Below are positions 37,890 through 64,000 of a stretch of DNA of 64,000 nt, one piece after another. Source of the DNA: Candidatus Omnitrophota bacterium (GTDB lineage Bacteria; Omnitrophota; Gorgyraeia; Gygaellales; JBFMHM01); contig JBFMHM010000001.1 of the NCBI GenBank assembly GCA_040753015.1, forward strand, positions 82,731 to 146,730, given 5' to 3'. The stretch's first letter is position 1. Each line of letters begins with the position of its first letter. The position numbers and the translations under genes were made by a program. The notes under the pieces were generated by a model, which saw nothing but the letters and a program-made list of their open reading frames with translations, had not been told where the DNA came from and did no database searches.

Positions 37890-40445
37890 ATGAAAAAAAT
37901 ATTTTTTAGTTTGGTTGTTTCTATAACTTTAATTTGTTTGGGCACTATGTCCGCTGATGCACAAATCAAGAAACAACCTTATAATACAAAAGGTAATCCC
38001 GTGGCTATGCCAAGGCTTTCTATGGAAATAAGTTTACAAAATCAAAATCAACAAGCAATCAATGAAATTCGCGCGGGGCAGCCATTTAATATTCGTGCGA
38101 TCGTAACAAATAGCGGTAACGCTGAAGGTAGAATAACGCGACTTGAACTTTCAGATAATGGGCAGCGTATTAATCCACCGCTCAATACAATTGAAGTTCA
38201 AAATAATGGCCGTATGCCTTATAAAGCAACTAGTTGTGAAGTAATTATTCGTAATATAGTTATTCAGCAACAAGGCCAGCATACAATAACTTTACAACTA
38301 CGAGATGGCAATAATAACATTATCCCGGGTAATAATTCAGTTCCTTTACAAGTAATCGCCCCACAAGTTCAGCAACCAGCCGGAAGAGCTAGTATTGATA
38401 TTATTGATCCCATAGAAATAAATCCTAATCCCCTACGACCTGAGGATATATTTATTATTAATATTAATGCAAGAAACTTTGGTGCCGCGCACGGAATAAT
38501 AGAAAGAGTAGAAGTTACAGATAATTTTAATGTTATTCCTAACCTAATTCTTAATGTTAATGCACAACACGGACGCATCGTAATTCCTAACGATAATCAG
38601 AGTTACCCAATTTCGGTTCAATGCCAGCCGTTACAAACAGGAAGACATACAATACGTGTTAGATTTTTTTACAGCAGTGCTGCAGAACATCAAGAACATA
38701 TTTTTGATAGTCCGTACTCTGATCCAGTTATTCTAGAAATATCTGAACCGCAAGCACAGCCAAGCTTTGATAATCCCCAGCCTAGAATAATTGCGATAGC
38801 ACCAAGTCGCCCCAGTATCAATGAACCTTTTGGCGTAACTACAAGAATTACAAATTCCGGCAATGGTCCAGCTACAATAACTATGTCACGAATCTTTGAA
38901 GGCGATAATACTATTGGCACTAATAATGAAAGATTTGAAATAAACCCCAATATTACTATTAATAAAAATATAGCTTGCCAAGGTATAAGGCATCCCGGCG
39001 AACATACTATAGTTACTAAATTTTTTGATATTAATAATACGCCTATTTCAAGCGAACCGTTTACTTTTAATGTTATAGCAGCTAATTTTAACGAATCTTC
39101 TATATCGCGAGCTAGCCATTCAATCATTGCGAATCAATTATTTACAGTAACAGCAAACATTACGAATTCTGGAAACGGCCTAGGTACAATAAATACATCG
39201 ACAATTTTGTTACCAAACGGCAACCCTATAAGCACAGGAAGAAATGTATCACAACGTATTAATATCAAACCAGGCGAAACTGTTACTAAAGATATACAAT
39301 GTTTTATTATGCAGCAAGGTGAATATGATATAATTTTGGAACTAACTGACTCTAATAATAATGTTTATCGAAGCACGCCATTTCATATTGTCGTTGAACC
39401 TGCGCCACAAAGATTACCTAATCTTTCTATTGCCCGCGTATTTGCTACGATAGAAAACCGAGAAATCGATATAGTGCCGTCCAATACACCTTTTACTATT
39501 TCTATCGTAGTAAGCAATAGAGAAGGACAAGCAGATGGAATACTCTCTAATATCGAAATCAGAGATAATAATGCAATAATACCCTTGCCTGCGCCAAATC
39601 GTAATGTAACTGTTACTCGCGGCCAAGAACTAACTATACCAATCCGTATTCCAAACGGCATACAACAACCTGGTGAGCATAGGATAATGGTAACCCTTAT
39701 CGATAACAATAATAATTCTATTCCCGGCAATAATTTAGTTGCTCTACAAGTCCAAGAAGCACCTCGGCCACAGCCCCAGCTTGCTATATCTAACATTGCC
39801 ATAACAAATTTACAAAATCAGCCAATTAACTCCATTATCGCAGGCCAGCCTTTTAATATTGCCGTAACCGTAAATAATTCAGGCAACGCAGAGGGTGTTA
39901 TACAACGGGCGGAAGCGATAGATAACAATAATCTCATGAATCCGCAACCTCAAGTTAATCTTTCGAATAATGGACGCATTCCCGCTGGTGAACGAAATTA
40001 TAGAATAGAGTTTCTTAATGCAATAATTCAAAATCCCGGACCTCATCAAATCAACGTAAGGCTTACTGATTCAAGTGGAAATAGATACGATGTTAACCCG
40101 ATTATCCTACAAGTCCAAGAAGAACCCCGGCCAGAGGTTATAATTAATTCTGTAACTGCTACAGCTAATATCAACCTAAGAGATAGGCCCCAACCAGTTA
40201 CAGTAAATATTGAAGCAAGAAGCAATAATGCTCCTAGTACAATTAATGTAGAAATATTAGACCCGGATAACAACAGGCTAGAATTAGTTAGAAACATATT
40301 GCTTAATGTAAATGTAGATACCAGAGTACCACCAATAACAACATCACAAAACGCCCCTAGATCAACAAGACAAGTAAGGATTATAATCACCAGAGAAGAT
40401 AACACTGTTATTTTTGATCAACAGATAGATATTGCAAATCAATAG
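37890..40445 (+). CDS. secreted multi-domain CARDB-like repeat protein
   Basis: Signal peptide MKKIFFSLVVSITLICLGTMSADAQ. At least seven modules each contain a (T/V)N(S/F)GN(A/G)xG(R/T/V)I strand (NSGNAEGRI, NSGNGPATI, NSGNGLGTI, ...). The modules are separated by LQVQEAPRP-type linkers. Confidence 0.65.
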   Translation: MKKIFFSLVVSITLICLGTMSADAQIKKQPYNTKGNPVAMPRLSMEISLQNQNQQAINEIRAGQPFNIRAIVTNSGNAEGRITRLELSDNGQRINPPLNTIEVQNNGRMPYKATSCEVIIRNIVIQQQGQHTITLQLRDGNNNIIPGNNSVPLQVIAPQVQQPAGRASIDIIDPIEINPNPLRPEDIFIININARNFGAAHGIIERVEVTDNFNVIPNLILNVNAQHGRIVIPNDNQSYPISVQCQPLQTGRHTIRVRFFYSSAAEHQEHIFDSPYSDPVILEISEPQAQPSFDNPQPRIIAIAPSRPSINEPFGVTTRITNSGNGPATITMSRIFEGDNTIGTNNERFEINPNITINKNIACQGIRHPGEHTIVTKFFDINNTPISSEPFTFNVIAANFNESSISRASHSIIANQLFTVTANITNSGNGLGTINTSTILLPNGNPISTGRNVSQRINIKPGETVTKDIQCFIMQQGEYDIILELTDSNNNVYRSTPFHIVVEPAPQRLPNLSIARVFATIENREIDIVPSNTPFTISIVVSNREGQADGILSNIEIRDNNAIIPLPAPNRNVTVTRGQELTIPIRIPNGIQQPGEHRIMVTLIDNNNNSIPGNNLVALQVQEAPRPQPQLAISNIAITNLQNQPINSIIAGQPFNIAVTVNNSGNAEGVIQRAEAIDNNNLMNPQPQVNLSNNGRIPAGERNYRIEFLNAIIQNPGPHQINVRLTDSSGNRYDVNPIILQVQEEPRPEVIINSVTATANINLRDRPQPVTVNIEARSNNAPSTINVEILDPDNNRLELVRNILLNVNVDTRVPPITTSQNAPRSTRQVRIIITREDNTVIFDQQIDIANQ
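40134..40445 (+). repeat. 312-bp segment identical to 41553-41864 (shared 3' end of the two CARDB-like genes)
   Basis: Compared base by base, with a constant offset of 1419. Only the stop codons differ (TAG versus TAA). Confidence 0.8.
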
Positions 40446-40478
40446 ATAGTACGTAAGATTATAATGAATGGAGGCTGC

Positions 40479-41864
40479 ATGAAAAAAATATTTTTTGTTT
40501 TTGTTGTACACGTAGTATTAACTTGTTTAATTAATACTACAGCATACTCACAAGGAATTTTAAACCAAGATAACCAAAATCTTATTATTAATTCAGTTAT
40601 TATTGATCCTCAAATACCAGAGGCTAACCAACTTTTTAATATAAATGTTGAATTAAAAAATATTGGTAAGCAAAATCTTACTTTTGATGTCATAGAAGCA
40701 CAGACCCAACCCGAAGGAGTTATTTGGCGTCTAAGCTTTCCGAATGCAAGAACCATATCTCCAAAAACTAGTTTTTATTCCGGGCTAATTGAATGTCGTC
40801 CATTAGTCAATTCCGGGAAGCGAACATTAACAATAGTTGTAAAAAGTAGGAATAGAATAATTACACAAAAAAATATTGAAATAAAAGTTAGAAATGCAGC
40901 TGGGCCACTACTTTCAATTACTAATGTAATCGCTAGTCCTATTAATCAAAATCAGGGTTTTACCGTCACGGCTACAGTAAGAAATAGCGGGAATGCCGAA
41001 GGACGTATTATATCTACAACACTGCGAGCACAAGGAAATAATTTTATACTACAAAATAATATTGATAGGCTTGTAAGATCGCGATCAGAAGAACAAATTG
41101 AAATACGTTCACCAAATGGTTTTCCTACTCCAGGATTCAAAAATATGCTTTTAATTATTGAAACTGCCGATAACGCAAGAATACCTCCATTTCCTTTTGT
41201 AATAGAAGTTATTGAAACCAGAGCGCAAATTGGAATTATTAATCCTATTGAGATAAATCCTAATCCCGCTAACACAGGACAAGCATTTGATATTCTTACA
41301 AGAGTGCAAAATATCGGAAATGAAGGAGGAAGCATACGACACTTAATCGTAACGGATAACAATTTTCATCTTTTTGATGAAAGACCCAATGAAGTTATTC
41401 CCGCGGGTGAAAATCGAGTAATTACAACACGTATCCAAAACGGCATTCAAAATCTCGGCCCGCACCAGGTAAGCGTGCGCCTAACTGACTCAAATAATTA
41501 TCTCCATACCAGTAACCCAGTTATTATCCAAGTCCAAGAAGCACCTCGGCCCGAGGTTATAATTAATTCTGTAACTGCTACAGCTAATATCAACCTAAGA
41601 GATAGGCCCCAACCAGTTACAGTAAATATTGAAGCAAGAAGCAATAATGCTCCTAGTACAATTAATGTAGAAATATTAGACCCGGATAACAACAGGCTAG
41701 AATTAGTTAGAAACATATTGCTTAATGTAAATGTAGATACCAGAGTACCACCAATAACAACATCACAAAACGCCCCTAGATCAACAAGACAAGTAAGGAT
41801 TATAATCACCAGAGAAGATAACACTGTTATTTTTGATCAACAGATAGATATTGCAAATCAATAA
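40479..41864 (+). CDS. secreted CARDB-like repeat protein, paralogue of 37890-40445
   Basis: The start is revised to MKKIFFVFVV, with GGAGG 5 nt upstream. The signal peptide, NSGNAEGRI and NIGNEGGSI modules, and a C-terminal 104 aa identical to the upstream gene are present. Confidence 0.65.
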   Translation: MKKIFFVFVVHVVLTCLINTTAYSQGILNQDNQNLIINSVIIDPQIPEANQLFNINVELKNIGKQNLTFDVIEAQTQPEGVIWRLSFPNARTISPKTSFYSGLIECRPLVNSGKRTLTIVVKSRNRIITQKNIEIKVRNAAGPLLSITNVIASPINQNQGFTVTATVRNSGNAEGRIISTTLRAQGNNFILQNNIDRLVRSRSEEQIEIRSPNGFPTPGFKNMLLIIETADNARIPPFPFVIEVIETRAQIGIINPIEINPNPANTGQAFDILTRVQNIGNEGGSIRHLIVTDNNFHLFDERPNEVIPAGENRVITTRIQNGIQNLGPHQVSVRLTDSNNYLHTSNPVIIQVQEAPRPEVIINSVTATANINLRDRPQPVTVNIEARSNNAPSTINVEILDPDNNRLELVRNILLNVNVDTRVPPITTSQNAPRSTRQVRIIITREDNTVIFDQQIDIANQ

Positions 41865-45392: not shown

Positions 45393-45730
45393 TTGCTTTA
45401 CTTCCTATAATATATCTTATGTTAACTACGATAAATAGCAATATATTCCATAACACATTGTTTTATAAGGATTTATGTAATTGTAGGGATTTCCTGTTAA
45501 TAAGCACTTCTTGGCTTACTGAGACTTACTTATTCTTAACAGGCAAGCTGCTATCTCTTTACATTTAATTTAGTTATGAATAATCTGTTATCTTATCTAA
45601 ACTTACTTTTATTTCACTTACCCTAACTTACTTATTATTTCAAAAAAATCTACCTCTGGCTGGTACCAGAAAGTATATACTCTAAATCGCCGTTTGTTAA
45701 GTTTATTTTCAAAAAAGATGGTATATATTA

Positions 45731-46033
45731 TTAAGTAATAATAGCAATTTGAATTAGTGATAAATCAATACCACCTGTAGGCTCTACTGAAGCCATTTTG
45801 GTACCAGATTGACCTGGATTTGGTAAGGCTTTTTGGGCTTGATTGGCTATAATTTCTAGTGCTTCTTGACCGCTAGGATTACCCGCAACCAACTGCGCAG
45901 TATCCGGCTTAACCCCGGCTTTAAGAAGTTTGGTTATAGCTAGATTCGTAAACATATTAATAAATTGTTTTATATCCTTTCCTAGCACAAGTATCTGCCT
46001 GGTCAGGAGCGCCGGGGGTGACGTGCCAGTCAC
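45731..46033 (-). CDS. hypothetical ORF overlapping the 3' end of the giant gene (possibly a frameshifted continuation)
   Basis: 100-aa ORF that overlaps 45957-51140 by 77 nt in another frame. No motif is recognised. Confidence 0.2.
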   Translation of the reverse strand: MTGTSPPALLTRQILVLGKDIKQFINMFTNLAITKLLKAGVKPDTAQLVAGNPSGQEALEIIANQAQKALPNPGQSGTKMASVEPTGGIDLSLIQIAIIT

Positions 46034-49000: not shown

Positions 49001-51140
49001 GGGAATTAGTAAGACAAGTTGCTTCTTGAAGCAATGTTCTTAGCCTTTGAGCAAGCGGTAGGTTTGTAACAGGCCAGGCTCTATTTCTTAGAGAGAACAT
49101 ATCCATAACTCGTCTGGCTATACCTAATTTTTGCGGTTTTTCTTCATTTTCTGATGCTTGAGCTTCTGGAACAGCTAAAGCAGTTGTTGGTGCTATTACT
49201 TCAACAACATAATCTTCAGATAAAATACCAGCTGCTTGTAATTGTAATTCTGACCGTCTTTCATCTGTTATGGCCTCTGTAACAACAGCTAATCCTGGCG
49301 TAGATAGTTCAGCATTAGTTACAAATATTGGCCTGTTGGCAATATACCTTAAGTTCCAACCAAGCTGGCCAATAAAATAACTAACCCTTTGAGCTGACGT
49401 ACCACTATCTGCTATTCTTGTTTCACTAACGCTTTCTATAGGTAAATGTTCACATAAATAAGTAAATAAATCTTGCTTGAGATTGTCTGTAGTAACGCTT
49501 TCAATAATAACACTAGTCAAATATTCAAAAACTAGCTTAAGATAATCCGCGGAAGGAACATTCAAACTATCAAGCACGCCTCTTGATAAAAGAGCGGTTT
49601 CTTGGCCGACATAATTCAAACCAGCTTCAAGAATTAATCTTTGTTCATAGCTACCACCTCTACTTGCACGAATCCTACGGTCAAAATCTAACAATGTATA
49701 TGCTAAATGCCTACGCTTCTGTTCTGAATAAGCTAGGCCCTTGGATAAGTCTAGGTCTTGAAGAATTGCATTAGATGTTTGAGGAACACCAGCTATTAAA
49801 ATTATGGGATAATGAACCTCATCAGAAACAGCCATATACATCTCACCAGTTTTTAAGAACCTCTCTGCTGCGCCTTTGTAACTACCACTAGCTAAAACTC
49901 TACCTAGGTCTCTTTCTAACCTTTCTTGTCCTAGATCTACTCTTACATTAATACCAGCATCTTGAATATATGTACCCAGACGCATTGATCCATTTGCAGT
50001 TACACCAGGAAAGTTTTTAGGATCAAAACCTACACCCCCACTCACATAACTTCTCCTGATATTCGCCTTTAGCTCTTCATTGTAGTTAGTCTTAGTAAGG
50101 TGGTATTCCCCTTGCTTAACAGAATCTAAATAAGCAGCAAAGATTTGTTCTTTTGTTACAGGCTCTTTGGAGATTAGGCCGTTTAGGTTATTGGTGTTGA
50201 TTATTGAAGAAAAGGCGTTCTTCAGTTCGTCCGTTCGCTGGTTCGTCAGTTCTTCTAACTTTTCGCTTTGACTTTTCCCGCCTGAGGCGGGTCCGCCTTT
50301 GGCGGATACGTTTTCTTTGTACCACTTCGCAAGAATAATTGCATTGTATATTTGTCTTAAAGGCTCATATGATGGATCATGGTTTACTTTATAGGTTAGG
50401 TTAGGAAGTATTAGTTCTTTTAGTTGAGCTTCGCAGTAGGATTGTAACTCTTGGTTGTTATCAAACTCCCCCTTTATCCCCCTCTTTGGTAAAGAGGGGG
50501 TCTGGGGGAGTTGTAGATACTCACTTTCCAGTAACACTTTCAGTGTTGATTTGGTAATTACACAGCTTCCTTTACCGTCTTCGTATACTTCTGCTTTGTC
50601 TGGGACTATCCAGACACGGAAGGTTGTGGGGATAGATACAGTTCGACTGTTCTTCAGTTCGTCAGTTCGTCGGTTAGATAATTGTTTTGCCTTGGCAAAC
50701 ACACGTTCCCAATAGGTAGTTGCTCCAGTAGATAATCCGGGAAATAGGCTAAAGGCTGTGTCTTTCTTAAGCTTTAGGTCTAGGAGTAGTAGATGCTTGC
50801 CCATGTCTGTGTAGGATAGATTAGTTCCTGTGAGCCTGTTAGGTTGGTTTGGGTTAAGGTTAACCCAGAATTCAGAGTCTTGTATGGTTAGAGCGGTTAG
50901 GAAGTAGTTTATGTTGGTTTGTAGATCTTTACGTTGGTCTAGGGAAAGAATGGTGCCTTTGGGGATGTTTAGATTGAATTGGATACCTGTAGGGACAGAC
51001 CCGTGTGTCTGTCCAAATGTTATGCCTAACAATATAGGCGCCTGTAAGGGTGCGGTAACCGTACCCTGAATAAAACCCAAGCCTATTTGGCTAAAAGCTA
51101 GCGTAAAAATTAAAACCACAGAAACTATACGACGTATCAT
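45957..51140 (-). CDS. giant secreted protein (1727 aa) with PBS-lyase-type HEAT repeats
   Basis: Signal peptide MIRRIVSVVLIFTLAFSQ. The long all-alpha body has at least six HEAT-like repeats of the pattern PLI.CL.DED..VR..A..AL.KIG.PAV. Duplicated TDELKN motifs and Gly/Pro-rich in-frame palindrome segments are present. Confidence 0.7.
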   Translation of the reverse strand: MIRRIVSVVLIFTLAFSQIGLGFIQGTVTAPLQAPILLGITFGQTHGSVPTGIQFNLNIPKGTILSLDQRKDLQTNINYFLTALTIQDSEFWVNLNPNQPNRLTGTNLSYTDMGKHLLLLDLKLKKDTAFSLFPGLSTGATTYWERVFAKAKQLSNRRTDELKNSRTVSIPTTFRVWIVPDKAEVYEDGKGSCVITKSTLKVLLESEYLQLPQTPSLPKRGIKGEFDNNQELQSYCEAQLKELILPNLTYKVNHDPSYEPLRQIYNAIILAKWYKENVSAKGGPASGGKSQSEKLEELTNQRTDELKNAFSSIINTNNLNGLISKEPVTKEQIFAAYLDSVKQGEYHLTKTNYNEELKANIRRSYVSGGVGFDPKNFPGVTANGSMRLGTYIQDAGINVRVDLGQERLERDLGRVLASGSYKGAAERFLKTGEMYMAVSDEVHYPIILIAGVPQTSNAILQDLDLSKGLAYSEQKRRHLAYTLLDFDRRIRASRGGSYEQRLILEAGLNYVGQETALLSRGVLDSLNVPSADYLKLVFEYLTSVIIESVTTDNLKQDLFTYLCEHLPIESVSETRIADSGTSAQRVSYFIGQLGWNLRYIANRPIFVTNAELSTPGLAVVTEAITDERRSELQLQAAGILSEDYVVEVIAPTTALAVPEAQASENEEKPQKLGIARRVMDMFSLRNRAWPVTNLPLAQRLRTLLQEATCLTNSQRQEAFSQTALLMSTNRDREQAVKMLINLTRQLDIQPAVLELLTYLDTETATLVFMKSFARTSDDVVSLITWLSFLDSARARLCLAQYKGMLTEEVLANLPLSCYVLAHMMETRRYKPYIAAIRTHMKTEDKIAGLATVARLIVLVDTIRQQGTITRGQTQTISFQKSIDDIEAIQTELSRSYNKLQELKQQASAAAIARTTDSDSPQQIYARELRRVSDICMLGRLPADVVKALAGFAKDKGIVAFDLLVELITVQEPQAIAIFVNTLGQNQPRLAVAGYDLSDKIRCVEFLSLLLARINQPKAVGTLDVMVHNQQLYDQDSRRLAERILLGPAVEALDQARELHEALIKTRPQEYNTELEFQLTGVLLAADLTKGQREQAVKRCAQIIETTDDNWHKLKADFRVLIALRTDLDQARKDAIAELGRLKAIDVMLEYLELIESKNTMRKVLQIIRLHKQETTKYSAEISTSLRQIAEHHPKNFTEEQCKRLWRLSRAKDDIEDILVILAQRGNAYVVNDLIAYAEAAISTDEARKLMDKHLLQLLKRSFNPEIEQWATWRRNLINILSHTNLDFTRVNAPHLLNLMIDTGRLITLLSNLGMPEDVARQVSFLNPDDETDRKSIIRNLGESRHPLIVEPLITCLRDENEDIRHAAAQALAKIGQPAVDPLIVCLRDEDKNVRQAAVKAFIKIGRPAVERLIACLRYDNNLLSQSAIKALGEIGDPRAVEPLIKCLKDEDGSVRYNAREALIKTGRPAVESLIECLKDPTVRDSAIESLIKIGKVALPALETAFNRGSREVRNDIERIIRDINNARTKTPTGEISRGYSEEELARKREAIKANSSQVAQDNREVVVLAHRRIQALLDNRGAEIEALLINAGMSQQDAQGLLNRLRGPPLKTGEAFGLPEAETCPFNWFNAEVESPNRYFLGAESALAINLIQYLSEREGVNGLPNDLIDEYILHELLENTDLDHYQIIRLTQQFFNRGKEGRDWHVTPGAPDQADTCARKGYKTIY

Positions 51141-51143
51141 TTA

Positions 51144-51191
51144 ATTCTCTCCGTATGTTCCCGTGGCTTATAATAAAGTATACACTATAAA
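51144..51191. repeat. 48-bp exact direct repeat (promoter/5'UTR of the giant gene), copy A
   Basis: ATTCTCTCCGTATGTTCCCGTGGCTTATAATAAAGTATACACTATAAA is identical at 55413-55460. Confidence 0.8.
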
Positions 51192-51222
51192 TACATATAT
51201 TTCAAGGCAATACGAATTTCGT

Positions 51223-51579
51223 TTACCCAGTAATATTTTCGTAGTGATTTAGGCGGTTTTGAGATAGATCTTCGTTAAGCACAATACATATTGCATCAAT
51301 GCGGCACGCTCCATTATATTTATTAATTACAACGTAAGTATTAACATTTTTTATGAGTTTCTTCATTTTTCGTTTATCAAGAGTCTCTTCTGGGCTGCCA
51401 AAATCCTTACCTATTTTTGTACGCACCTCAACAAAAACAAGAACACCTCTGTGTGTAGCGATTAAATCAATTTCTAAGTAGGGAGTTTTATAATTTTGAT
51501 CGACGACTTTATAACCTTTAGCTGTTAGATATTTTCTTGCAATATTTTCACCAATACGGCCGATTTCAACGGTTTCCAT
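51223..51579 (-). CDS. yraN: YraN family (UPF0102) endonuclease-like protein
   Basis: IGENIARKYLTAKGYKVVDQNYKTPYLEIDLIATHRGVLVFVEVRTK matches UPF0102. It is adjacent to comM, as in many bacteria. Confidence 0.7.
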   Translation of the reverse strand: METVEIGRIGENIARKYLTAKGYKVVDQNYKTPYLEIDLIATHRGVLVFVEVRTKIGKDFGSPEETLDKRKMKKLIKNVNTYVVINKYNGACRIDAICIVLNEDLSQNRLNHYENITG

Positions 51580-51580
51580 A

Positions 51581-53113
51581 TTATTCTTGTTTATTTTTCG
51601 GTCGGTATTGCAATGCCTCGGCTATATGTTTTACACCTATCTCCTCGCTATTATCCAAATCTGCAATTGTGCGTGCTACTTTTATTACTTTAAAATATGC
51701 CCGCGCAGAAAGTTGAAAAGTTACTGCTGCCTGATTAAGCAATTCTTTTATTTCTTTTGAAAGTTTACAATATTTTTTAATATGTTTATTGCGCATCTCT
51801 GCATTTACAAAAATGTCATCATTTATAAACCGTTCTTTCTGTATTTGGCGTGCTTTAATTACTCTTTCCCTGATTTTTTTCGACTGCTCTTGCGATTGAG
51901 CCTGTTCTGACTCTGAAAATTCTTTAATATCAACTACCGGTACCTCAACGTGCAAATCAATCCTATCTAAAAGCGGCCCAGAAATTCGCTTAGCATATTT
52001 TTTAATTTCTCGGCTGCTGCAGCTGCAAGCTTTTTTAGGATGATATAAATATCCGCACGGACAAGGGTTGGCTGAAGCAACTAATGTAAAACGTGATGGA
52101 AAAGTAACTCTATTCTTACTTCTTGAAATAGTTAAAAAGCCGTCTTCTAATGGCTGGCGCAAAACTTCCAGCACTGAACGCGGAAACTCATTTAGCTCAT
52201 CTAAAAATAGTACCCCTCTATGCGCCAAGCTTACATCGCCTGGCTGCGGATAAGTACCCCCTCCTATTAAACCAACGCGCGATGTTGTGTGATGTGGGCT
52301 ACGAAATGGAGGCAATTTTATTAGAGAACCTTGCGCTGGCATATGACCTGATGCTGAGTACATTTTAGTTACCTCCAAAGATTCACCATCAGTTAGTGGC
52401 GGTAAAATTCCCGGAAGTGCGCGCGCCATCATTGTCTTTCCAGAACCCGGACTTCCTACCATAAATAAATTATGCCCACCGCTTGCAGCAATCTCTAATG
52501 CTCGCTTTGCTTGTTCTTGGCCTAAAACCTCGGCCATATCAAACTCGACCTGCGCATCTAACTCTATCGTTTTTGTTTCTCGATATTTAACTGGCGCAAG
52601 CTTAACATTTCCCATTAAATAAGCAACAAGCTCGCTCAAATTTTCCACGCCATAGATATTTATTCCCTCAACTATTGCTGCTTCATTAGCAGAAGCTTTA
52701 GGCAAAAATATATTTTTGATACCGTTTTCTTTTGCAAATAAACTTAAGAGCAACGCTCCTTTTACATGGCGCAAAGATCCATCTAGTGATAATTCACCAA
52801 AAAACAGACTATCCTTTGGCAAGGCAACATCTAAAGTTAAACTTAAAATACCAACCGCAATTGGCAAATCATAAAACGACCCTTCTTTAGGAACATCCGC
52901 AGGGGCTAAATTAACAATAATTCTTTTTGCCGGAAAATCAACGTTTGAATTTATAATTGCCGTACGCACACGCTCTTTACTCTCATCTACAGCTTTAGTA
53001 GTTAAACCAACTATTTCAAAAATCGGCAGGCCGCGTAAGGCAACATTAATTTCTACATCTATTGCAATAGTTTGAAGCCCTAAATTTGCCGCTGACATTA
53101 CTTTAATTAACAT
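51581..53113 (-). CDS. comM: Mg-chelatase-like AAA ATPase YifB/ComM
   Basis: An N-terminal Lon-like domain, Walker A GSPGSGKTM, a CPCG zinc motif and the C-terminal domain are present. Length is 510 aa. Confidence 0.88.
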   Translation of the reverse strand: MLIKVMSAANLGLQTIAIDVEINVALRGLPIFEIVGLTTKAVDESKERVRTAIINSNVDFPAKRIIVNLAPADVPKEGSFYDLPIAVGILSLTLDVALPKDSLFFGELSLDGSLRHVKGALLLSLFAKENGIKNIFLPKASANEAAIVEGINIYGVENLSELVAYLMGNVKLAPVKYRETKTIELDAQVEFDMAEVLGQEQAKRALEIAASGGHNLFMVGSPGSGKTMMARALPGILPPLTDGESLEVTKMYSASGHMPAQGSLIKLPPFRSPHHTTSRVGLIGGGTYPQPGDVSLAHRGVLFLDELNEFPRSVLEVLRQPLEDGFLTISRSKNRVTFPSRFTLVASANPCPCGYLYHPKKACSCSSREIKKYAKRISGPLLDRIDLHVEVPVVDIKEFSESEQAQSQEQSKKIRERVIKARQIQKERFINDDIFVNAEMRNKHIKKYCKLSKEIKELLNQAAVTFQLSARAYFKVIKVARTIADLDNSEEIGVKHIAEALQYRPKNKQE

Positions 53114-53963
53114 AAAATTTTGCTCCTTCTTGCTGTATTAAACCCTTTATTTGCATAATCGAGATTGCACTGCTAATTTGCGAGGCAGAAACTTTAAGTT
53201 TACGTGCTAACACATCTATTTCTTGCGGCTCATTTTTTAATGTTTCAATTATGCTTGCCTCTAATTTGCTTAAATCTTGATTACCTGAGCGCGCATCTTT
53301 AGTAATAGTATTTGTTATTCCATAATGCAATAGTATATCCTCAGCAGAACTTACAACACTTGCCCCTTCTTTAATTAATTGTAATGTACCATAAGAAACA
53401 CTGCTGTTAATTGGCCCGGGAACACTAAAAATTTTTCTTTTAAATTTTTTAGCAAAACCTGCAGTAATTAATGAACCACTATTTTCGCCTGCTTCAACAA
53501 CTAACGTGCCTAAAGAAAGCCCGGCAATAATCCTATTTCTTTGTGGGTATGTCCAAAGCTGAGGTAGGGTAGCGCCTTCATATTCTGAAATAATTAGGCC
53601 ATTATTTTTCAAAATTTGAGTGTATAAATCTTCTTGGTATGCCGGGTGAATCATATTAATACCGCAAGGCATAACAGCAATAGTCCTACCTCCTCCCTCA
53701 AGGGCTGCCTTATGCGCTGTTGCGTCAATCCCATACATGAATCCTGATACTATTGTTACGCCTAAAGTTGCAATTTCAGAGACTATCTTTTGCGTAGCCT
53801 GTTTGCCATAAGTAGTCATCTTGCGAGAACCAACAACTGCTAAGCAATTTACAAAAATTTCTGAATCTAGTTTGCCTTTATAGTAAAGCTGCTTGGGAGG
53901 AGATTTTATCGTTTTAAGTAATGTGGGGTATTCTGAATCGCTAAATTTAACAACACCTTGCAT
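53103..53963 (-). CDS. dprA: DNA processing protein DprA
   Basis: The Rossmann-like domain reads LAVVGSRKMTTYGKQ...GLIISEYE...PQRNRIIAGLS. A C-terminal winged-helix-like domain follows. Length is 286 aa. Confidence 0.8.
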   Translation of the reverse strand: MQGVVKFSDSEYPTLLKTIKSPPKQLYYKGKLDSEIFVNCLAVVGSRKMTTYGKQATQKIVSEIATLGVTIVSGFMYGIDATAHKAALEGGGRTIAVMPCGINMIHPAYQEDLYTQILKNNGLIISEYEGATLPQLWTYPQRNRIIAGLSLGTLVVEAGENSGSLITAGFAKKFKRKIFSVPGPINSSVSYGTLQLIKEGASVVSSAEDILLHYGITNTITKDARSGNQDLSKLEASIIETLKNEPQEIDVLARKLKVSASQISSAISIMQIKGLIQQEGAKFYVN

Positions 53964-54002
53964 AGAGATTTTTTATCACACAAATACCGCTATGTCAAGG
54001 TA

Positions 54003-54509
54003 TTATAAAGATATTTTTTTAATATCTAGAGACTTGCAGAGCAACAATAATGTATTAAGCGTAATATTCTTTTTGCCCTCTTCAATTTTTGAAATATCCG
54101 GCTGATCAATACCGGTAACCAATGCTAAGTCCTTTTGACTTAAACCTTTCTCTATGCGCGCAATTTTAATTGTTTTTCCAATATTTAAAAATGATATTGG
54201 TACTGCCCCTTTAAATGTATGTTTTTTTTGAATACCTTTTTTTTCCAAAAGTTGATCGTAAACAGTTTGCCACCACTGCCGAAAATCTGATTTCTTTTCA
54301 ACTTTAATCCAATATAATTTTACCCTAGTCCAATTTTTAATAAATTCGTCTTTGGAAATAACAGAAAAAATTATTTTTGGCTCATCACATCGAGAAAATA
54401 AATTGACCAAGCGAATAATAAATTTAGGATGATTTGGATCTTTAAGAATTACTTTGGTTTCCTTTAAGGCCTTATCATTTAAGTCCCAAAAATATTTCGA
54501 TATATCCAT
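54003..54509 (-). CDS. XRE-family HTH protein with N-terminal domain of unknown function
   Basis: The C-terminal HTH reads IARIEKGLSQKDLALVTGIDQPDISKIEEGKKNITLNTLLLLCKSL. Its ATG overlaps the stop of the upstream gene (ATGA). Confidence 0.6.
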   Translation of the reverse strand: MDISKYFWDLNDKALKETKVILKDPNHPKFIIRLVNLFSRCDEPKIIFSVISKDEFIKNWTRVKLYWIKVEKKSDFRQWWQTVYDQLLEKKGIQKKHTFKGAVPISFLNIGKTIKIARIEKGLSQKDLALVTGIDQPDISKIEEGKKNITLNTLLLLCKSLDIKKISL

Positions 54510-55219
54510 TATTCAATTTCCTCCGCCATAAATTTTTTGACTTCGTTTTCTAGATAAATAATCATTTCTCGAGAATCAAAGTTTTTTATATAAATATCCA
54601 TATCAAGTAAATCAAATTTCAAATCCTGTCTAGAAAATGTTTGATACCAGTAAATCATGCCTCTTTGAATCTGACGGGGCAGTGTTTTTAAAAATAAATG
54701 CAGCGGCTCAATTTTCTTTGAAAGCATATAAATATCAAAAACATCTCGCGCTTTTCTCCTGCCCTCCATTATCTCAGCACCCACATCATTTTCTTTTATG
54801 CTTAAACCCGTAATAGTTGTGATTTTTTGCAAATAGATAATTTTCACATCGTAAACAGGCACTCCATCAAAATATTTTATTTTAGGTTTATCAAAAATAA
54901 CATCTTCAACAAAATCAAGTTTTAGGGATCTTTTTGTGCTTTTTATCGGGACAGAATAAAATCTCACTTTAGCCATATTTGGAGCTATAAACTCTGATTC
55001 AAGCTTTATATTAAGCCTTGTTTCTTTTTTAAATTCTTTTACAATCTCATTTATCTCTTTTACATCATATATCGGTGAAAAAAAATCCAAATCAACAGAA
55101 AACCTGTGATACAAATAATAAAGTTCGAGTGCGGTTCCACCCGTAAGTGCGAATGTTTTTGTTTTTTTCGCAAAAATATTTAAAATCTTATGCTGTAATT
55201 GCCTATTTTCCTTATCCAT
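54509..55219 (-). CDS. AbiEii-like nucleotidyltransferase (type IV toxin family, DUF1814)
   Basis: KTFALTGGTALELYYLYHRFSVDLDFF matches the AbiEii GGTAL...R.S.DLDF motif. Length is 236 aa. Confidence 0.65.
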   Translation of the reverse strand: MDKENRQLQHKILNIFAKKTKTFALTGGTALELYYLYHRFSVDLDFFSPIYDVKEINEIVKEFKKETRLNIKLESEFIAPNMAKVRFYSVPIKSTKRSLKLDFVEDVIFDKPKIKYFDGVPVYDVKIIYLQKITTITGLSIKENDVGAEIMEGRRKARDVFDIYMLSKKIEPLHLFLKTLPRQIQRGMIYWYQTFSRQDLKFDLLDMDIYIKNFDSREMIIYLENEVKKFMAEEIE

Positions 55220-55295
55220 ATCATCATAATTTTTATAGTTTATAAACTATATCTAATATAGAGTATAAACTATATTTTATGTTTTGTCAAGTTCT

Positions 55296-55460
55296 AATTT
55301 ACACAAGACTCCCCTTTCTTCGTATATTTTTGCTTCGTCTGGTACGATCCAGACACGGAAGATTGTGGGGATAGATACGGTTCGACTGTTCGTCAGTTCT
55401 TCAGTTCTTTTGATTCTCTCCGTATGTTCCCGTGGCTTATAATAAAGTATACACTATAAA
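55296..55460 (-). pseudogene. degenerate 5' remnant of a giant-gene paralogue: promoter copy B plus an internally deleted coding fragment
   Basis: 55413-55460 is identical to 51144-51191. 55300-55412 is about 85% identical to 50560-50680, which encodes ...EELTNSRTVSIPTIFRVWIVPDEAKIYEE, compared with NSRTVSIPTTFRVWIVPDKAEVYED in the intact gene. The first 450 nt or so of coding sequence are missing. Confidence 0.5.
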
Positions 55461-55519: not shown

Positions 55520-56935
55520 ATGCCAATTACACTAAAATTTTGTGGTGGAGCACGCACTGTCACTGGCTCCATGCACTTACTAACTGTAGACAGAGTAAAA
55601 ATTTTAATTGACTGTGGCTTATTTCAAGGCAGGCGCGATGAATTTTTTGCGGTAAACTCTGAATTTCCTTTTGAACCTTCAGGAATAGATAACTGTATTA
55701 TATCCCATGCCCATATTGACCACTGCGGAAATTTTCCAACTTTAGTTCGAAAAGGGTTTCGTGGAAAAGCCTATCTTACACCTCAAACGCGCGATCTCTT
55801 ACGCTACATGTTACCAGATTCTGGACATATACAAGAAGAAGATATTAAATATGTAAATAAAATTAATCGCAGACGAGGATTGCTTCCTCGTTGGCCGCTC
55901 TATACACAAGCTGATGCAGAAAAATCTTTAAAATTTCTTAGGCCAATTGAATACCGCAAAACTATCGATATAGCCAAGGGTACAGGCCTTACTTTATATG
56001 ACTCCGGGCATATCCTAGGCGCATCAATTCCTGTAATTGATATCGAAACTAATAAAGGAAAAATTAGAATTGCTTATGCTGTGGATCTTGGCCGGCCAAA
56101 CCTACCTTACTTAAAGAATCCGGAGATTCCTGAAGATATAGATTACATTATAATAGAAAGTACTTATGGCGGAAAATCACACTCTGCTATTGAAACCGCT
56201 GAGAAAAAATTAGAAATTGCAATAAATAAGACTGTAAGACGCGGTGGAAAAGTTATTATACCTGCATTCGCGTTAGAAAGATCTCAAGAAGTTTTATATT
56301 TCATTGCGCGACTTTTTAAACATAAAAAAATCGAAGATATACCTGTATATGTTGACTCTCCGCTTGCAGTAGATATCACAAAAGTATTTATGAGCCATTG
56401 GGATTATTTTGATGAGGAAACCAGAAATACTTTTCAAAAAGAACTAGGACCGCTTTCGCACCATAATATAAACTATATATCCAATGTGAATCAATCAAAA
56501 AAACTAAATGACAAGAAAGGCCCAATGATTATAATCTCTTCATCGGGAATGTGTGAAAACGGGCGTATATTGCACCATCTAAAAAATAATATCGAAAACC
56601 CTTACAACACAATAATCGTAGTAGGCTTTATGGCAAAAGATACTTTAGGTAGAAAAATTGTTGATAAAAAACCTTTCGTCAATATTTTTGGCAGGCCTTA
56701 TCAATTAAACGCAGAAGTAGTATTAGACGATGCCTTTAGTGCTCACGCTGATAGAGAATATCTTGTTAAATATATAAAAGAATGCCGTAAATACGGAAGG
56801 CTTAAAAAAATATTCATTGTTCACGGTGAACCTAATCAATCTGATGAACTCAGAAAATCATTAAAATCATTAAACCTGCGAGTCTCTGTACCTGAAAAAA
56901 ATGAAGTAGCATTTCTTAATGCAAACCAGAAATAA
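55520..56935 (+). CDS. beta-CASP family ribonuclease (MBL fold, RNA-specificity domain)
   Basis: PITLKFCGGARTVTGSMHLLTVDRVKILIDCGLFQG and HAHIDHCGNFP match the family. The C-terminal beta-CASP His motifs are present. Confidence 0.78.
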   Translation: MPITLKFCGGARTVTGSMHLLTVDRVKILIDCGLFQGRRDEFFAVNSEFPFEPSGIDNCIISHAHIDHCGNFPTLVRKGFRGKAYLTPQTRDLLRYMLPDSGHIQEEDIKYVNKINRRRGLLPRWPLYTQADAEKSLKFLRPIEYRKTIDIAKGTGLTLYDSGHILGASIPVIDIETNKGKIRIAYAVDLGRPNLPYLKNPEIPEDIDYIIIESTYGGKSHSAIETAEKKLEIAINKTVRRGGKVIIPAFALERSQEVLYFIARLFKHKKIEDIPVYVDSPLAVDITKVFMSHWDYFDEETRNTFQKELGPLSHHNINYISNVNQSKKLNDKKGPMIIISSSGMCENGRILHHLKNNIENPYNTIIVVGFMAKDTLGRKIVDKKPFVNIFGRPYQLNAEVVLDDAFSAHADREYLVKYIKECRKYGRLKKIFIVHGEPNQSDELRKSLKSLNLRVSVPEKNEVAFLNANQK

Positions 56936-59794: not shown

Positions 59795-60478
59795 TCATCT
59801 CGGTTCAAATGAGATTATTATATCGAAAAACTCTTTGTCTTTACCCAGCTCTTTAGGAAATGATTGAAATGGCGATGCATTCCTAACTGACCTAGAGCCT
59901 GCCTTCTTTAAATTATTAGGTAAACTATTTATGCTATCTTCTATAATTTCTATATCTAGAATTTGGCCGATATTTGATATAGAAAATACTAAGCGAACTT
60001 CACCAGTTAAGCTTCTTTCATTATAAAGTTCTTGATAAGCAGAGTGCCTAATCTTTTCCCATATTTCAAAATAATATTTATTAAGCTCTGTTGGGTTTCT
60101 CCTGTATTCACTTTGGATATTGGTCAAATTTACGGCTTGTGCCATAGGCGGTTTTGATTCTACTTTAGGCTCAAGTAGTACGGTCTCAAGTTTTGCCTTG
60201 ATTATTTCTTGAGGAATTTTAGATAATATAAGCTTTTCTTGTTTAGGTTTAATATTATCGAGCGAATCTTTTTCTTTATAAACAGAAAATTGTTTTTCTT
60301 TATTAATAAAGCAATAACTTACTTCGATTTTCTTATCGGGAATAAAAGTAAACTGCCTAAATATAGGCATACGCCAAATAATCGCTCCATGAGCAATCAC
60401 TGAAATCCCAATCATTATTTTAAACAAATTTTTTGCATCCATTATCTTAATTAATATCGCTTTGCCTCTGCCCGGCAA
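59795..60478 (-). CDS. TM-anchored protein with TonB-C-like C-terminus; candidate Rhs immunity protein
   Basis: An N-terminal TM helix is followed by the C-terminal segment TGEVRLVFSISNIGQILDIEIIEDS. It lies immediately downstream of the Rhs toxin gene and overlaps it by 32 nt. Confidence 0.45.
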   Translation of the reverse strand: MPGRGKAILIKIMDAKNLFKIMIGISVIAHGAIIWRMPIFRQFTFIPDKKIEVSYCFINKEKQFSVYKEKDSLDNIKPKQEKLILSKIPQEIIKAKLETVLLEPKVESKPPMAQAVNLTNIQSEYRRNPTELNKYYFEIWEKIRHSAYQELYNERSLTGEVRLVFSISNIGQILDIEIIEDSINSLPNNLKKAGSRSVRNASPFQSFPKELGKDKEFFDIIISFEPR

Positions 60479-63400
60479 CCGCTATACCAGACATACCATA
60501 GCTGCCATTAATTCCATAAAGAGAAGTTGAAACTAAATAAGAAGTAGACCCGTGTGATAATGTAGTAGTAAAAGCCCCTACCGCACTCATGCCACCAGCC
60601 ATCAAAGTATTAAACGTTGCCTGATGACAAGTTGCTGTCCAAGGCATACCCCAAATAACACCTTTTGTCGGATCTAATAAGCTAAATTGAGCAGAATCAA
60701 CAAGAACACCATTAACATTAACCAAAGCATTTACATGTCTTATACCTAAAATATTAAACGTCTTTCCCAAAAATGGAACTTGACCAAAAGCAGCATCCGA
60801 CGTAACTAACCCTTGCTCCACAAAAGAAACTTTAGGATTAAGACCATTATGTGTTCTTATATAATTAGCTCCTGTACCCCCCAAATTATCTGGATTTAAT
60901 GTTTCTTTACCATATTCCATTATCGCCCCTTGTTGATTTTCTACCTTTGTATAGTTTGGGCCCGTATAATTTGCTGGCATAGTTATAGATGATAAACCTA
61001 TAAATAATGCAGAGGATAAAGCCGTATGCGATACTAGAGATGAAAAAAAATCAGCAAACCTAGGAGACATCCCCAATACATCATCAAAAAATTCTTTAGC
61101 AAACCATCTTACAAATTGCCTACCTATTCCAGTGTCCAATAATGCTGTTGCTCCGGCTGCAGCAGCTCCTGCAGTAAGTGCCACTGTAGCAAATCCAAAT
61201 TTTGTAATTAAAGGTGCAAACGATGGAACAAGTGCAACAGTTACTATAGCAAGCACAGCAGCAATAAGTGGTTTAAAAATTTTTTTCCAAAAATCCTTCC
61301 ATCCTAATCCAGTTGGATCTGTGTATTTTAACGGATTGTTTCTACAATAACTATAGCGATTGAAATCTTGTGGATCGTAAATCTTCTGAGTAGTTGGATC
61401 CGGAGTAATAAATCTTGCTAATTCTGGATCATAATATCTTGCTCCGTAAAAATATAAACCAGTATTATCAAGCTCTCTACCATTAAATTTATAATTCGTA
61501 AGGTTATCACCTTCTTCTTTTGCACTCAATCCATACGGATAATATTCATTAAGCTGAATAATTTCGCCTTGATCATTGGTAATAATATTTGAAGATCCTA
61601 AATGATCTCCGTGATAATATCTACGCGATATTAAACCTGACCCAGAAATAACTGAACATATTTTTTGCAAACCAAGGAAAATATGATTAGTTAAAACTGT
61701 ATCCTCATTTTTTGAATTAACTTCGTATAAATCACCCACATAAATAGTCGAATCTAAAATCTGGCCATTACTATTTATCAAATTTTTCTTATATCTTCCC
61801 CCATCTGAATCATAATAAAAACGTGCAACAACAGGCTGCTGTTCTTTTATTAGCTGCCCCGGAGCACTACAACGGATCAAATATCCCTTGCCAAGATTTA
61901 ATCGTGCATTAATTTGTGTTTGCTCAAATTGAGCTTGTTGATTATCAAACATGTATAGTGCCTCTATTAGATTATTTCCCGATAACTTAAAGTTAGCGCC
62001 AATAAAATTATACTGAGAAACAAAATTCACCTGAACCTGTTCATCAGGAATTCTGCCTCTAATGTGTACAACCTTAGGAACATTTGACGATATATAAATA
62101 AAATATCCTCTCCCGTATTCGAGTGAATTAAATTGATTATATATCACATCTTTTACAAAATGTTCGTAATTTTGTGTATAGGGATTAAGCCGCGAAACTT
62201 GAAGATAATCGCTTAGACTCAATTCATTAAGCACAGAAGTTACCGCTAAATCATTTGGAATAACACTTAAAGAAAATGTATTCCATCCTGGATTAAGAGT
62301 AACCTCAACAGTTTTTTCTAGTTGCTGTTCATTGCGCACTTCAACAAGTCGATTATTAACATCATAATCATAAGCGACTATAATTTGATCATTTAACAAC
62401 TTAGATTTTAAATTACCATTATAATCATATATAAAATTTCTTCCATCAGATAAAGATGTAAGCGCATGAGGCCCTCCATAAGATAGACCATTTCCTAAAT
62501 TCGGGAGGCCTTGTTTATCGTAAGAATAGTTTAAATAATTATTGCGAATCATGTTTCCTATTGAATCATAACGATAATCAATAAGCCCATAAGAAATTCC
62601 GTCTGCTTGTATAAGACGATTTAAAGAGTCATATCGGAAGCTTTGAGTATTAGTATGTATCTTATCCTGTATCTGAGTAATATTACCAACAGCATCAAAA
62701 ACATAAGTCAAATCCTGAAGTATGCGATTATTTTGATTTCGCGAAATCAAATGTTCTAATCTAATCGTATTTGGATTATAAGCGTATTCTCTTATATCGC
62801 CATTACCATATACAACACGGCTAATCTGCCCCAATTGGTTATAGTCAACTTCTTGCACATATTGAATATCATCACTAGCCACCCCGATTATTTGCCCTGT
62901 AACCGAATCATATGTATACCTTATTGTTGTATTGTCTGGGTAAATCAAAACTTTGGGTTGGCTCAATGCGTCAAACGTACGCCTCATTTCATATTGATTG
63001 GAATCTATTGTTTTTATTGTCCTTATTTCACGACCTAAAGCATCATAAAAAAATTCAACTTGACCATCAGGATATTCTATTGTCGAAATACGACCAATAG
63101 AATCTTGTTTCTGAATATCATCATATATATGTGTTGCTAAAATTGTTGGGTTATTTTGATTTGTAGAATCTCTCTTTTGCATTAAACGATTAAGTTCGTC
63201 ATACGCGAATTCAATAGTTTGCCCTTTTGCATCAATCTGGGCAACAAGGTTCCCAGCCAAATCATAACTATAATTATATAACCCCATATCCGAATCAATC
63301 ATTCTAATCTTCCTGCCCAAAGAATCGTAGGTAAAAATAATTTGATTGTTCTGATTATCTATTGCTTGGACTAAATTATTTTTTGTATCATATAAATAAG

Positions 63401-64000
63401 AAGTTCTATAATTTTCTACCGCACCACTATCAGGATTAACATAATGTTCCGTAATTTGAATTATCCTATTATATGCATCAGTTGTAAAAACAGTAGAATT
63501 CCCGTTTTCATCAATAATAGTTTTACTAAAACCATCATAATTTACACTTGATGAGCTATTGTCTGCATTTAGCGTTCTTATTACTCTCCCAAGCACATCA
63601 TAATCAATAACAATATGCGGCTGACTCAAATCTGGCTCTGAAAATTGGCCTTGGGGATCAAAGGAAAAATATGGCACATATTTCTCCTTCACTCTTCCTT
63701 GATAATCAAAAGTTTGCGTATCTTGAATTATATAACGGCTTTGATGAGTATTTGGATCGTTTTGCGCAGGAACCTTCGTTTGAATAAGCCTACCTAAACC
63801 ATCAAAAAAAGAAACAATCGTTAAATAGTTATTAAGATCAAAGTGATCTATATGATCTTTTTTAATTTTTTTAATAATTTTTGTCGGAGTCTCGCCTAAA
63901 CAATACTCATAGATTGCACTAGGATTATCTTCTGTATCAAAAGGCCCAATAACTTTAACAAGCCTACCCAAAGCATCATAAATATTACGACTTATCTGAT
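60447..64000 (-). CDS. Rhs/YD-repeat protein with novel hydrophobic C-terminal toxin domain (5'-partial; continues beyond window)
   Basis: Many YD repeats are present (YDSLGR, YDALGRE, YDYNGN; the frame stays open to the window edge with ...YDALGRL). The Rhs core reads GARYYDPELARFITPDPTT...YCRNNPLKYTDPTGL. About 290 aa follow, beginning with 2-3 predicted TM helices. Confidence 0.8.
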   Translation of the reverse strand, partial: QISRNIYDALGRLVKVIGPFDTEDNPSAIYEYCLGETPTKIIKKIKKDHIDHFDLNNYLTIVSFFDGLGRLIQTKVPAQNDPNTHQSRYIIQDTQTFDYQGRVKEKYVPYFSFDPQGQFSEPDLSQPHIVIDYDVLGRVIRTLNADNSSSSVNYDGFSKTIIDENGNSTVFTTDAYNRIIQITEHYVNPDSGAVENYRTSYLYDTKNNLVQAIDNQNNQIIFTYDSLGRKIRMIDSDMGLYNYSYDLAGNLVAQIDAKGQTIEFAYDELNRLMQKRDSTNQNNPTILATHIYDDIQKQDSIGRISTIEYPDGQVEFFYDALGREIRTIKTIDSNQYEMRRTFDALSQPKVLIYPDNTTIRYTYDSVTGQIIGVASDDIQYVQEVDYNQLGQISRVVYGNGDIREYAYNPNTIRLEHLISRNQNNRILQDLTYVFDAVGNITQIQDKIHTNTQSFRYDSLNRLIQADGISYGLIDYRYDSIGNMIRNNYLNYSYDKQGLPNLGNGLSYGGPHALTSLSDGRNFIYDYNGNLKSKLLNDQIIVAYDYDVNNRLVEVRNEQQLEKTVEVTLNPGWNTFSLSVIPNDLAVTSVLNELSLSDYLQVSRLNPYTQNYEHFVKDVIYNQFNSLEYGRGYFIYISSNVPKVVHIRGRIPDEQVQVNFVSQYNFIGANFKLSGNNLIEALYMFDNQQAQFEQTQINARLNLGKGYLIRCSAPGQLIKEQQPVVARFYYDSDGGRYKKNLINSNGQILDSTIYVGDLYEVNSKNEDTVLTNHIFLGLQKICSVISGSGLISRRYYHGDHLGSSNIITNDQGEIIQLNEYYPYGLSAKEEGDNLTNYKFNGRELDNTGLYFYGARYYDPELARFITPDPTTQKIYDPQDFNRYSYCRNNPLKYTDPTGLGWKDFWKKIFKPLIAAVLAIVTVALVPSFAPLITKFGFATVALTAGAAAAGATALLDTGIGRQFVRWFAKEFFDDVLGMSPRFADFFSSLVSHTALSSALFIGLSSITMPANYTGPNYTKVENQQGAIMEYGKETLNPDNLGGTGANYIRTHNGLNPKVSFVEQGLVTSDAAFGQVPFLGKTFNILGIRHVNALVNVNGVLVDSAQFSLLDPTKGVIWGMPWTATCHQATFNTLMAGGMSAVGAFTTTLSHGSTSYLVSTSLYGINGSYGMSGIAVAGQRQSDIN

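Follow-up and report, generated by a model that had tools for sequence, protein, structure and literature searches.

A probable dead stub of a many-copy Omnitrophota gene family beside a toxin–antitoxin module and the dprA-comM-yraN operon

We analyzed a 64,000-nucleotide stretch of a Candidatus Omnitrophota genome (assembly GCA_040753015.1, contig JBFMHM010000001.1, positions 82,731 to 146,730; hereafter the window), in which an exact 48-bp sequence occurs twice in direct orientation on either side of genes coding for YraN, ComM, DprA, a helix-turn-helix (HTH) protein and an AbiEii-family toxin. The first copy (copy A) stands at the head of an intact gene for a 1727-residue protein (hereafter the giant gene), and the second (copy B) at the head of a short fragment of related coding sequence. 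Copy B probably marks the dead stub of another member of the many-copy family that includes the giant gene, lying beside an inserted toxin–antitoxin (TA) module and upstream of an ancestral dprA-comM-yraN operon. The anatomy of the stub, its family membership and the synteny of the locus with relatives can be read directly from the comparisons presented below. The stub is a real but ordinary gene relic of the kind left by ordinary genome decay.

The exact duplication, first reported in the initial annotation, was borne out: 51144-51191 is identical to 55413-55460, with up to three mismatches allowed, no further site occurs in the window, and 100 dinucleotide-preserving shuffles yielded no such site at all. 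With BLAST the match grows to 55 bp at 96% identity (51137-51191 against 55406-55460), one of the two mismatches being a spacer base and the other converting the start codon from ATG in copy A to AAG in copy B (55409-55407). Read on the minus strand, copy A is part of a module of the form TTGAAA-17-TATACT (10/12), followed by an untranslated region (UTR) of about 35 nt carrying GGAGAG and then the ATG of the giant gene. The repeat begins within the promoter spacer: it includes the −10 box, the UTR and the ribosome-binding site (RBS) and excludes the −35 box (51205-51200). On the copy B side, 55317-55407 is 90% identical (82/91) to 50578-50668, corresponding to codons 158-188 of the 1727-residue open reading frame (ORF), and a weaker gapped similarity to the giant gene fades near 55285, stopping at the −35 box of the promoter of the AbiEii module. 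A counterpart of 50669-51136 (about 468 nt, codons 2-157) is missing from copy B. The earlier estimates for this fragment (about 110 nt, 85% identical to codons about 150-190, with 450 nt deleted) come close to these measured values. The stub that results is presumably non-functional.

Both the giant gene and the stub belong to a family for which we found neither a published description nor a published name. Its plan, as seen in a 17-member alignment, features a signal peptide, an N-terminal domain of about 370 residues (hereafter the N-domain), an unrelated middle and a GGIDL or GGIDF motif near the C-terminus. The N-domain displays the conserved segments FWVNL, VWIVPD and LRQIY and a sharp end at R-x-Y-(F/V)-S-G-G, and its invariant residues include W92, V93, N94, L95, W177, I178, P180, L261, R262, Y265, G368 and G369. 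The giant gene codes for both the signal peptide and the N-domain, its residues 1-370 aligning with 16 family members, and the stub keeps just the VWIVPD core of the domain. An indexed search with residues 1-700 recovered 91 protein matches, nearly all from Omnitrophota, that cover just the N-terminal 40-55% of the query and are very diverse in their C-terminal domains; an exhaustive phmmer search with residues 1-385 yielded 7,100 cluster representatives (clustered at 50% identity) at E <= 1e-3 and 6,457 at E <= 1e-10. Across the family, the C-terminal domains include kinase, methyltransferase, TPR, ankyrin, receiver, radical SAM, GGDEF, TIR, deaminase and HEAT modules. No Pfam or NCBIfam model covers the N-domain, a moderately confident structure model of it (pLDDT 73, pTM 0.71) found no relative among solved structures, and a scan of genome contigs for it returned only two distant members at 30% identity. 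In the keyword-matched passages of a preprint on very long Omnitrophota proteins (10.64898/2026.06.07.730766) the family goes unmentioned.

The window’s own metagenome-assembled genome (MAG), AB1755, whose genes are named AB1755_xxxxx, codes for at least nine members: the giant gene and AB1755_02240, _02660, _02935, _03435, _04260, _04905, _05820 and _06550. Window and MAG are linked by ComM and the beta-CASP protein encoded at 55520-56935, both 100% identical to AB1755 proteins from a 417,111-bp contig. Identity to the giant gene runs at 81%, 99% and 97% in three of these paralogues and breaks off at residues 370-372, beyond which the sequences have nothing in common. In all, several paralogues of this genome are 81-99% identical in amino acids over the end of the N-domain, three of them 90-99%. 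AB1755_02660, _02935 and _05820 are complete members, and AB1755_02240, _03435, _04260, _04905 and _06550 are carried on contig ends. Five of the nine are represented by “partial” proteins, and those examined start inside the N-domain; therefore, the shared 5′ module breaks the short-read assembly. A comparable situation is seen in Ca. Zapsychrus exili (GCA_030765585.1), where the 5′ coding DNA of two paralogues, both located among housekeeping genes, is 80% identical over about 1.07 kb, up to a K-Y-F-C-G-G motif. About 160 nt of upstream non-coding DNA is also common to the two (76%), and the part shared by paralogues thus reaches 5′ of the start codon there too.

Within this family, the closest kin of the stub is not the adjacent gene. 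The in-frame 91-nt fragment (TEELTNSRTVSIPTIFRVWIVPDEAKIYE) differs from the giant gene at nine nucleotides, of which three are synonymous and six non-synonymous, a split based on too few changes to separate decay from selection. The 30-residue peptide encoded by this fragment plus one codon upstream (RTEELTNSRTVSIPTIFRVWIVPDEAKIYE) is identical to AB1755_05820 at 28/30 positions, to AB1755_06550 at 26/30 and to both the giant gene and AB1755_04905 at 24/30; over the whole N-domain, AB1755_05820 and the giant gene are only 53% identical. Four of the six replacements in the stub (D→E, K→T, K→E and E→K) are states present in intact paralogues, leaving T→I and V→I as the only private ones. Since random decay of a local duplicate would not give paralogue states, this closer affinity indicates that the stub derives from, or was converted by, a family member other than its neighbor. 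The initial annotation had seen in it the relic of a second giant-gene copy; the part of that claim which stands is that it is a paralogue remnant, most of which was removed, and the part which falls is that it was copied from the gene next door.

Hence, we consider it unlikely that the two copies arose by a local segmental duplication, in which the promoter and 5′ end of the giant gene were copied and the copy decayed in place, for example via a tandem duplication of the form TA-dprA-comM-yraN-P-5′ giant whose first operon copy was then deleted. Such an event would readily account for direct repeats only 4.27 kb apart with 48-bp identity, and for the giant-like 3′ tail of the stub, but it predicts a copy nearest to its neighbor and not, as found, one nearer to AB1755_05820 and AB1755_06550, and it needs at least three further rearrangements. 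It would also have to accommodate a coding part that is 10% diverged next to a promoter part that is 0% diverged. This contrast (0/48 in the repeat versus 9/91 in the adjoining fragment; Fisher p = 0.019) fits a promoter/UTR kept uniform across paralogues, and we infer that such uniformity, whether imposed by constraint or by gene conversion, underlies the perfect 48-bp identity, and not a duplication that took place locally and recently. The UTR core (CCACGGGAACATACGGAGAG) had two matches in a metagenome scan, both within an unrelated and apparently coding stretch unlike the window, which we attribute to chance. In viral contigs there was no match to this core and there were no close relatives of the N-domain or of the AbiEii protein. 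The 48-55-bp direct repeats could in principle allow RecA-dependent loss of the 4.27-kb segment between them.

The context of the stub becomes clear from the synteny with relatives. The nearest of those available are the contigs L006 and L007 (ComM 84-85% identical in amino acids, DNA about 75%), and the dprA-comM-yraN order is kept in both and in the more distant L008-L011. L007 opens with the first 27 nt of a divergent gene for a beta-CASP metallo-beta-lactamase (MBL)-fold ribonuclease (RNase), where 26/28 bases match window 55546-55519 and the start codes for MPITLKFCG as in the window; in this contig dprA lies only about 220 bp from the MBL start, with neither a TA pair nor a stub between them. 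In L006 the same spacer holds a different TA pair, an antitoxin with PemK. The dprA promoter region is conserved in the window, L006 and L007, the similarity setting in exactly at the HTH stop codon. On the other side, past yraN, both contigs run within 65-190 nt into a counterpart of window 45633-45403 (72% over 235 nt, E = 6e-27), a stretch located in the window beyond the giant gene and its 74-residue trailer. The window thus has two extra segments, one of some 5.6 kb that separates yraN from the 45.6-kb region (promoter, giant gene and tail ORF) and one of about 1.5 kb between the MBL gene and the dprA promoter (stub and TA pair). The synteny of the relatives thus points to the giant gene and the stub with its TA pair as lineage-specific insertions flanking a conserved operon. 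The initial annotation had treated the 4.2-kb block between the repeats as a duplication-bounded unit; with the operon conserved in L006-L011, it is the flanks that are new.

These comparisons bear on two further explanations. That the repeats are the attachment (att)-like ends of an integrated 4.2-kb yraN-comM-dprA-HTH-AbiEii island is exceedingly improbable: exact direct repeats do stand on both sides of the block, but it lacks a recombinase or integrase (the Pfam domains between the repeats are YraN, ComM, DprA, HTH_3 and AbiEii only), there is no empty site, and the operon occupies the same place in L006 and L007, which are without the repeats. Moreover, what is repeated is a gene family's expression signal and not a core common to two insertion boundaries. 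We also tried a TCTGGTACCA motif as an att-like site and rejected it; the giant-gene insertion has two copies of it at its 3′ end and the relatives have one after yraN, but the 5′ junctions have none. The second explanation is a misassembly, which is unlikely because relatives have the same gene order and the stub is diverged in a way of its own. Specifically, a short-read assembler might have joined the wrong flanks via the multi-copy 5′ module, and the partial AB1755 members indicate that this repeat does break the assembly. Nevertheless, such a join is very improbable here, given that the order MBL, dprA-comM-yraN and 45.6-kb region recurs in L007 and L006, that an alternative path through the 48 bp would leave the conserved operon on a 4.27-kb circle, and that a stub diverged with indels is no collapsed copy.

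The TA module that abuts the stub consists of an AbiEii-family nucleotidyltransferase and a 168-residue protein with a C-terminal Xre-type HTH domain; the labels AbiEii and HTH, like those of YraN, ComM and DprA, had been assigned in the initial annotation and were confirmed by Pfam, NCBIfam and PADLOC. The module parallels the AbiE type IV toxin–antitoxin and abortive infection system (AbiEi-AbiEii) in the AbiEii nucleotidyltransferase, in having two genes whose stop and start codons overlap, and in the inverted repeats that overlap its promoter. Unlike in that system, the partner is encoded downstream and is an Xre HTH protein rather than a COG5340-type AbiEi encoded upstream; no AbiEi profile matched, and the downstream partner matched Xre-type HTH models only. 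As L006 holds PemK there, the MBL-dprA spacer is a recurrent TA site, occupied by antitoxin and PemK at L006 106-659, by AbiEii and Xre at window 54003-55219 and by neither at L007 29-248. In a further contig, L003, a DUF4143-like ATPase gene lies immediately upstream of the MBL gene. The locus thereby resembles TA insertion hot spots with gene remnants, in that the MBL-dprA spacer varies and the stub is truncated at the very point where the TA module starts. It differs from them in that the truncated gene is a lineage-specific arrival from a many-copy family and carries a second, internal deletion.

The initial annotation had placed AbiEii downstream of a borrowed promoter, copy B, that might drive it, a notion that the sequence of the module does not support. 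The AbiEii gene has its own promoter about 40 nt upstream of its start codon (TTGACA-17-TATACT, 11/12), overlapped and followed by two 23-nt palindromic repeats that are operator-like, and the 48-bp repeat comes without a −35 box. Thus, the AbiEii/Xre pair is probably transcribed from its own repressible promoter and autoregulated by its HTH partner. Copy B shares the −10 box of copy A but has TGCAAA (3/6) at the −35 position; it was not called by the promoter scan, which found there no complete sigma-70 promoter with both hexamers at 16-18 nt spacing, and is probably inactive or weak. Its retention for a function, namely driving AbiEii/Xre or a short regulatory RNA, is therefore something we regard as quite unlikely. 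The perfect 48 bp beside a diverged fragment, the orientation of copy B towards AbiEii and another promoter-like site upstream of it (55526-55497) would all suit such a role, but the lack of a usable −35 box and the presence of a dedicated AbiEii promoter speak against it. So does the stub transcript, which folds no better than shuffled controls (z = −0.62) and matches no Rfam family, a permissive scan giving sub-threshold noise only; a structured regulatory RNA at the stub was rejected on account of this fold score.

Returning to the stub as a remnant of another family member, we propose the following likely history for the locus, its steps given in no particular order. A family gene carrying its own expression signals would have landed downstream of yraN, and another family gene between the MBL gene and dprA. 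The latter would have lost codons 2-157 together with its start codon, as well as all that followed about codon 194, the point at which the AbiEii/Xre module now starts, with the dprA-comM-yraN operon staying in place between both arrivals. Several points weigh against this reconstruction. The 3′ tail of the stub (KGSCV-like) is nearer to the giant gene than to AB1755_05820, and the source paralogue must therefore be a mosaic or be absent from the recovered proteins. The 48/48 identity beside a 9/91-diverged fragment is only moderately significant, and that the other AB1755 paralogues carry the same 48 bp is a prediction. The two segments count as gains, and not as losses in the relatives, by parsimony applied to two short contigs about 75% identical in DNA to the window. 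Finally, the silence of the stub and the use of the promoters are predictions from sequence.

HEAT repeats are the sole domain that Pfam and NCBIfam find in the giant gene, and the GGIDL motif sits not within the 1727-residue ORF but on a separate 74-residue ORF overlapping its stop. The frame of the latter is open back to 46033, and one frameshift would therefore join the two. In AB1755_02240 and AB1755_02660, each a single ORF, the protein ends in GGIDLS-x-V-(E/Q)-IT. The exact 1727-residue product is missing from the protein collection, in which neighboring proteins of the same contig are present; the giant gene may hence have been annotated as a pseudogene.

The architecture of the family is reminiscent of polymorphic toxin systems such as the Rhs, CdiA and MafB loci with displaced gene fragments (Zhang et al. 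2012, PMC3482391). The common features are the many copies per genome, a sharp boundary at a short motif (here R-x-Y-F/V-S-G-G) between a conserved N-terminal module and variable C-terminal ones, and truncated leftovers. The differences are that the fragment in the window is a 5′ stub with promoter and UTR instead of a 3′ orphan toxin cassette, that the intact neighbor has HEAT repeats and no toxin domain, that no immunity gene was recognized and that no known secretion-system marker is attached. In place of an immunity gene directly downstream of a C-terminal toxin, the giant gene is followed by the family tail. Accordingly, we claim for the family a resemblance to these systems and not membership among them.

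A different comparison is offered by Neisseria pilE/pilS and Borrelia vlsE, which combine one promoter-bearing expression site with promoter-less silent cassettes. The several copies with near-identical segments are a point in common and suggest gene conversion; unlike in those systems, the single intact member with readable upstream DNA here is preceded by a promoter of its own, and the one defective copy observed is a gene-less stub with part of a promoter. It is conceivable, if rather doubtful at present, that promoter, UTR and N-domain travel as one portable 5′ module, homogenized among the paralogues by gene conversion and serving as a recombination handle for exchanging variable payloads or seeding them at new chromosomal sites. 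If so, the stub would be the footprint of payload exchange or seeding and not of random decay, and both of its surviving pieces, the promoter/UTR segment and the VWIVPD core where the N-domain is most conserved, would be parts of that module. The family would then represent an Omnitrophota-wide, polymorphic-toxin-like diversification of secreted or surface proteins, based on a hitherto undescribed domain at the N-terminus and on a GGIDL tail.

A pseudogene fragment beside a TA insertion is of little weight in itself; the stub is useful as a marker leading to the family, and this uncharacterized family is the more interesting part, with near-identical 5′ modules, unrelated payloads and repeats that repeatedly break short-read assemblies. 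Omnitrophota are a phylum thought to comprise predators or parasites of other microbes, and should the 5′ module prove to be homogenized by conversion and used for payload exchange, the family would provide a new instance of secreted proteins diversifying by modules. The locus also carries a more general lesson: direct repeats flanking housekeeping genes need not delimit a mobile block, as here the block is ancestral and the flanks are new.

Table 1. Coordinates of the stub, the repeat copies and the surrounding features in the window
Feature	Position	Strand	Remarks
Conserved non-coding stretch, right anchor	45403..45640	-	Directly after yraN in L006 and L007
74-residue tail ORF ending ...EPTGGIDLSLIQIAIIT*	45731..45955	-	Begins in the stop of the giant gene (TAATATG); C-terminal GGIDL tail of the family
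Giant gene, intact family member, 1727 residues	45957..51140	-	Signal peptide, ~370-residue N-domain ending RRSYVSGG, unrelated middle, C-terminal HEAT repeats
Codons 158-188 of the giant gene, RTDELKNSRTVSIPTTFRVWIVPDKAEVYE	50578..50668	-	Homologous to the stub; includes family-invariant W177, I178 and P180
Copy A of the 48-bp repeat	51144..51191	-	−10 box TATACT 51182-51177, 5′ UTR, RBS GGAGAG; heads the intact 1727-residue gene
−35 box TTGAAA of the copy A promoter	51200..51205	-	Beyond the repeated 48 bp
dprA-comM-yraN operon, ancestral	51223..53963	-	Own conserved promoter just upstream of dprA (~53964-54010)
UPF0102/YraN	51223-51579	-	Pfam, NCBIfam
ComM/YifB	51581-53113	-	Pfam, NCBIfam
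DprA	53103-53963	-	Pfam, NCBIfam
168-residue protein with C-terminal Xre-type HTH	54003..54509	-	Putative antitoxin and repressor; not AbiEi; Pfam HTH_3, NCBIfam, PADLOC
AbiEii-family nucleotidyltransferase toxin	54509..55219	-	PF08843, 3.1e-17, above curated cut-off; 19 PADLOC AbiEii profiles
AbiEii promoter TTGACA-17-TATACT (55290-55262, 11/12)	55234..55290	-	Two 23-nt repeats with TATAG-N8-CTATA palindromes (55234-55279)
Coding stub, presumably dead	55285..55412	-	Start AAG; lacks codons 2-157; in-frame codons 158-188 (55407-55317) followed by indels
Copy B of the 48-bp repeat	55413..55460	-	−10 box, UTR and RBS; TGCAAA (3/6) where the −35 box is expected
Beta-CASP MBL-fold RNase gene, conserved left anchor	55520..56935	+	~220 bp from dprA in L007

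Other features of the window merit brief mention. The non-coding stretch that forms the right anchor of the synteny (45403-45640; 3562-3792 in L006 and 3165-3290 in L007) is conserved and purine-rich (GGGTAAGTGAAGTAAAAGTAAG...). L006 and L007 are 91% identical there over 108 nt, above their approximately 75% operon similarity to the window, and L006 is 72% identical to the window. A permissive Rfam scan of the 45-46 kb region gave sub-threshold noise only; this stretch is a candidate for a regulatory region or for an RNA yet to be described. Close by, a palindromic motif, (A)ATCTGGTACCA(AA), occurs at 45661-45670 and 45799-45808, both towards the 3′ end of the giant-gene insertion, and also once shortly past yraN in each of L006 (~3506-3521) and L007 (~3103-3118), with six near-matches in the window versus 1.3 expected.

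Elsewhere, Rfam found nothing above gathering scores in the whole window except one tRNA. Upstream of the tRNA-Arg(CCT) gene (36744-36817) lie two incomplete copies of the gene's 5′ end (GCCCCCGTAGCTTCAGCCAAAGGCTGAT...; 36636-36817 in all), seen as exact repeats of 28-31 bp, which may be footprints of integrations at the tRNA. A 351-bp direct repeat with 97.7% identity (40094-40444 and 41513-41863) forms the 3′ ends of two adjacent genes coding for CARDB-domain proteins (37890-40445 and 40464-41864), a second case of neighboring genes with a shared module. Another direct repeat, of about 180 bp at 80% identity, links 9363-9539 and 10162-10326. Close to the window edge, at 60447-63971 on the minus strand, ends a 1174-residue ORF coding for a large RHS-repeat protein with a DUF6443 domain.

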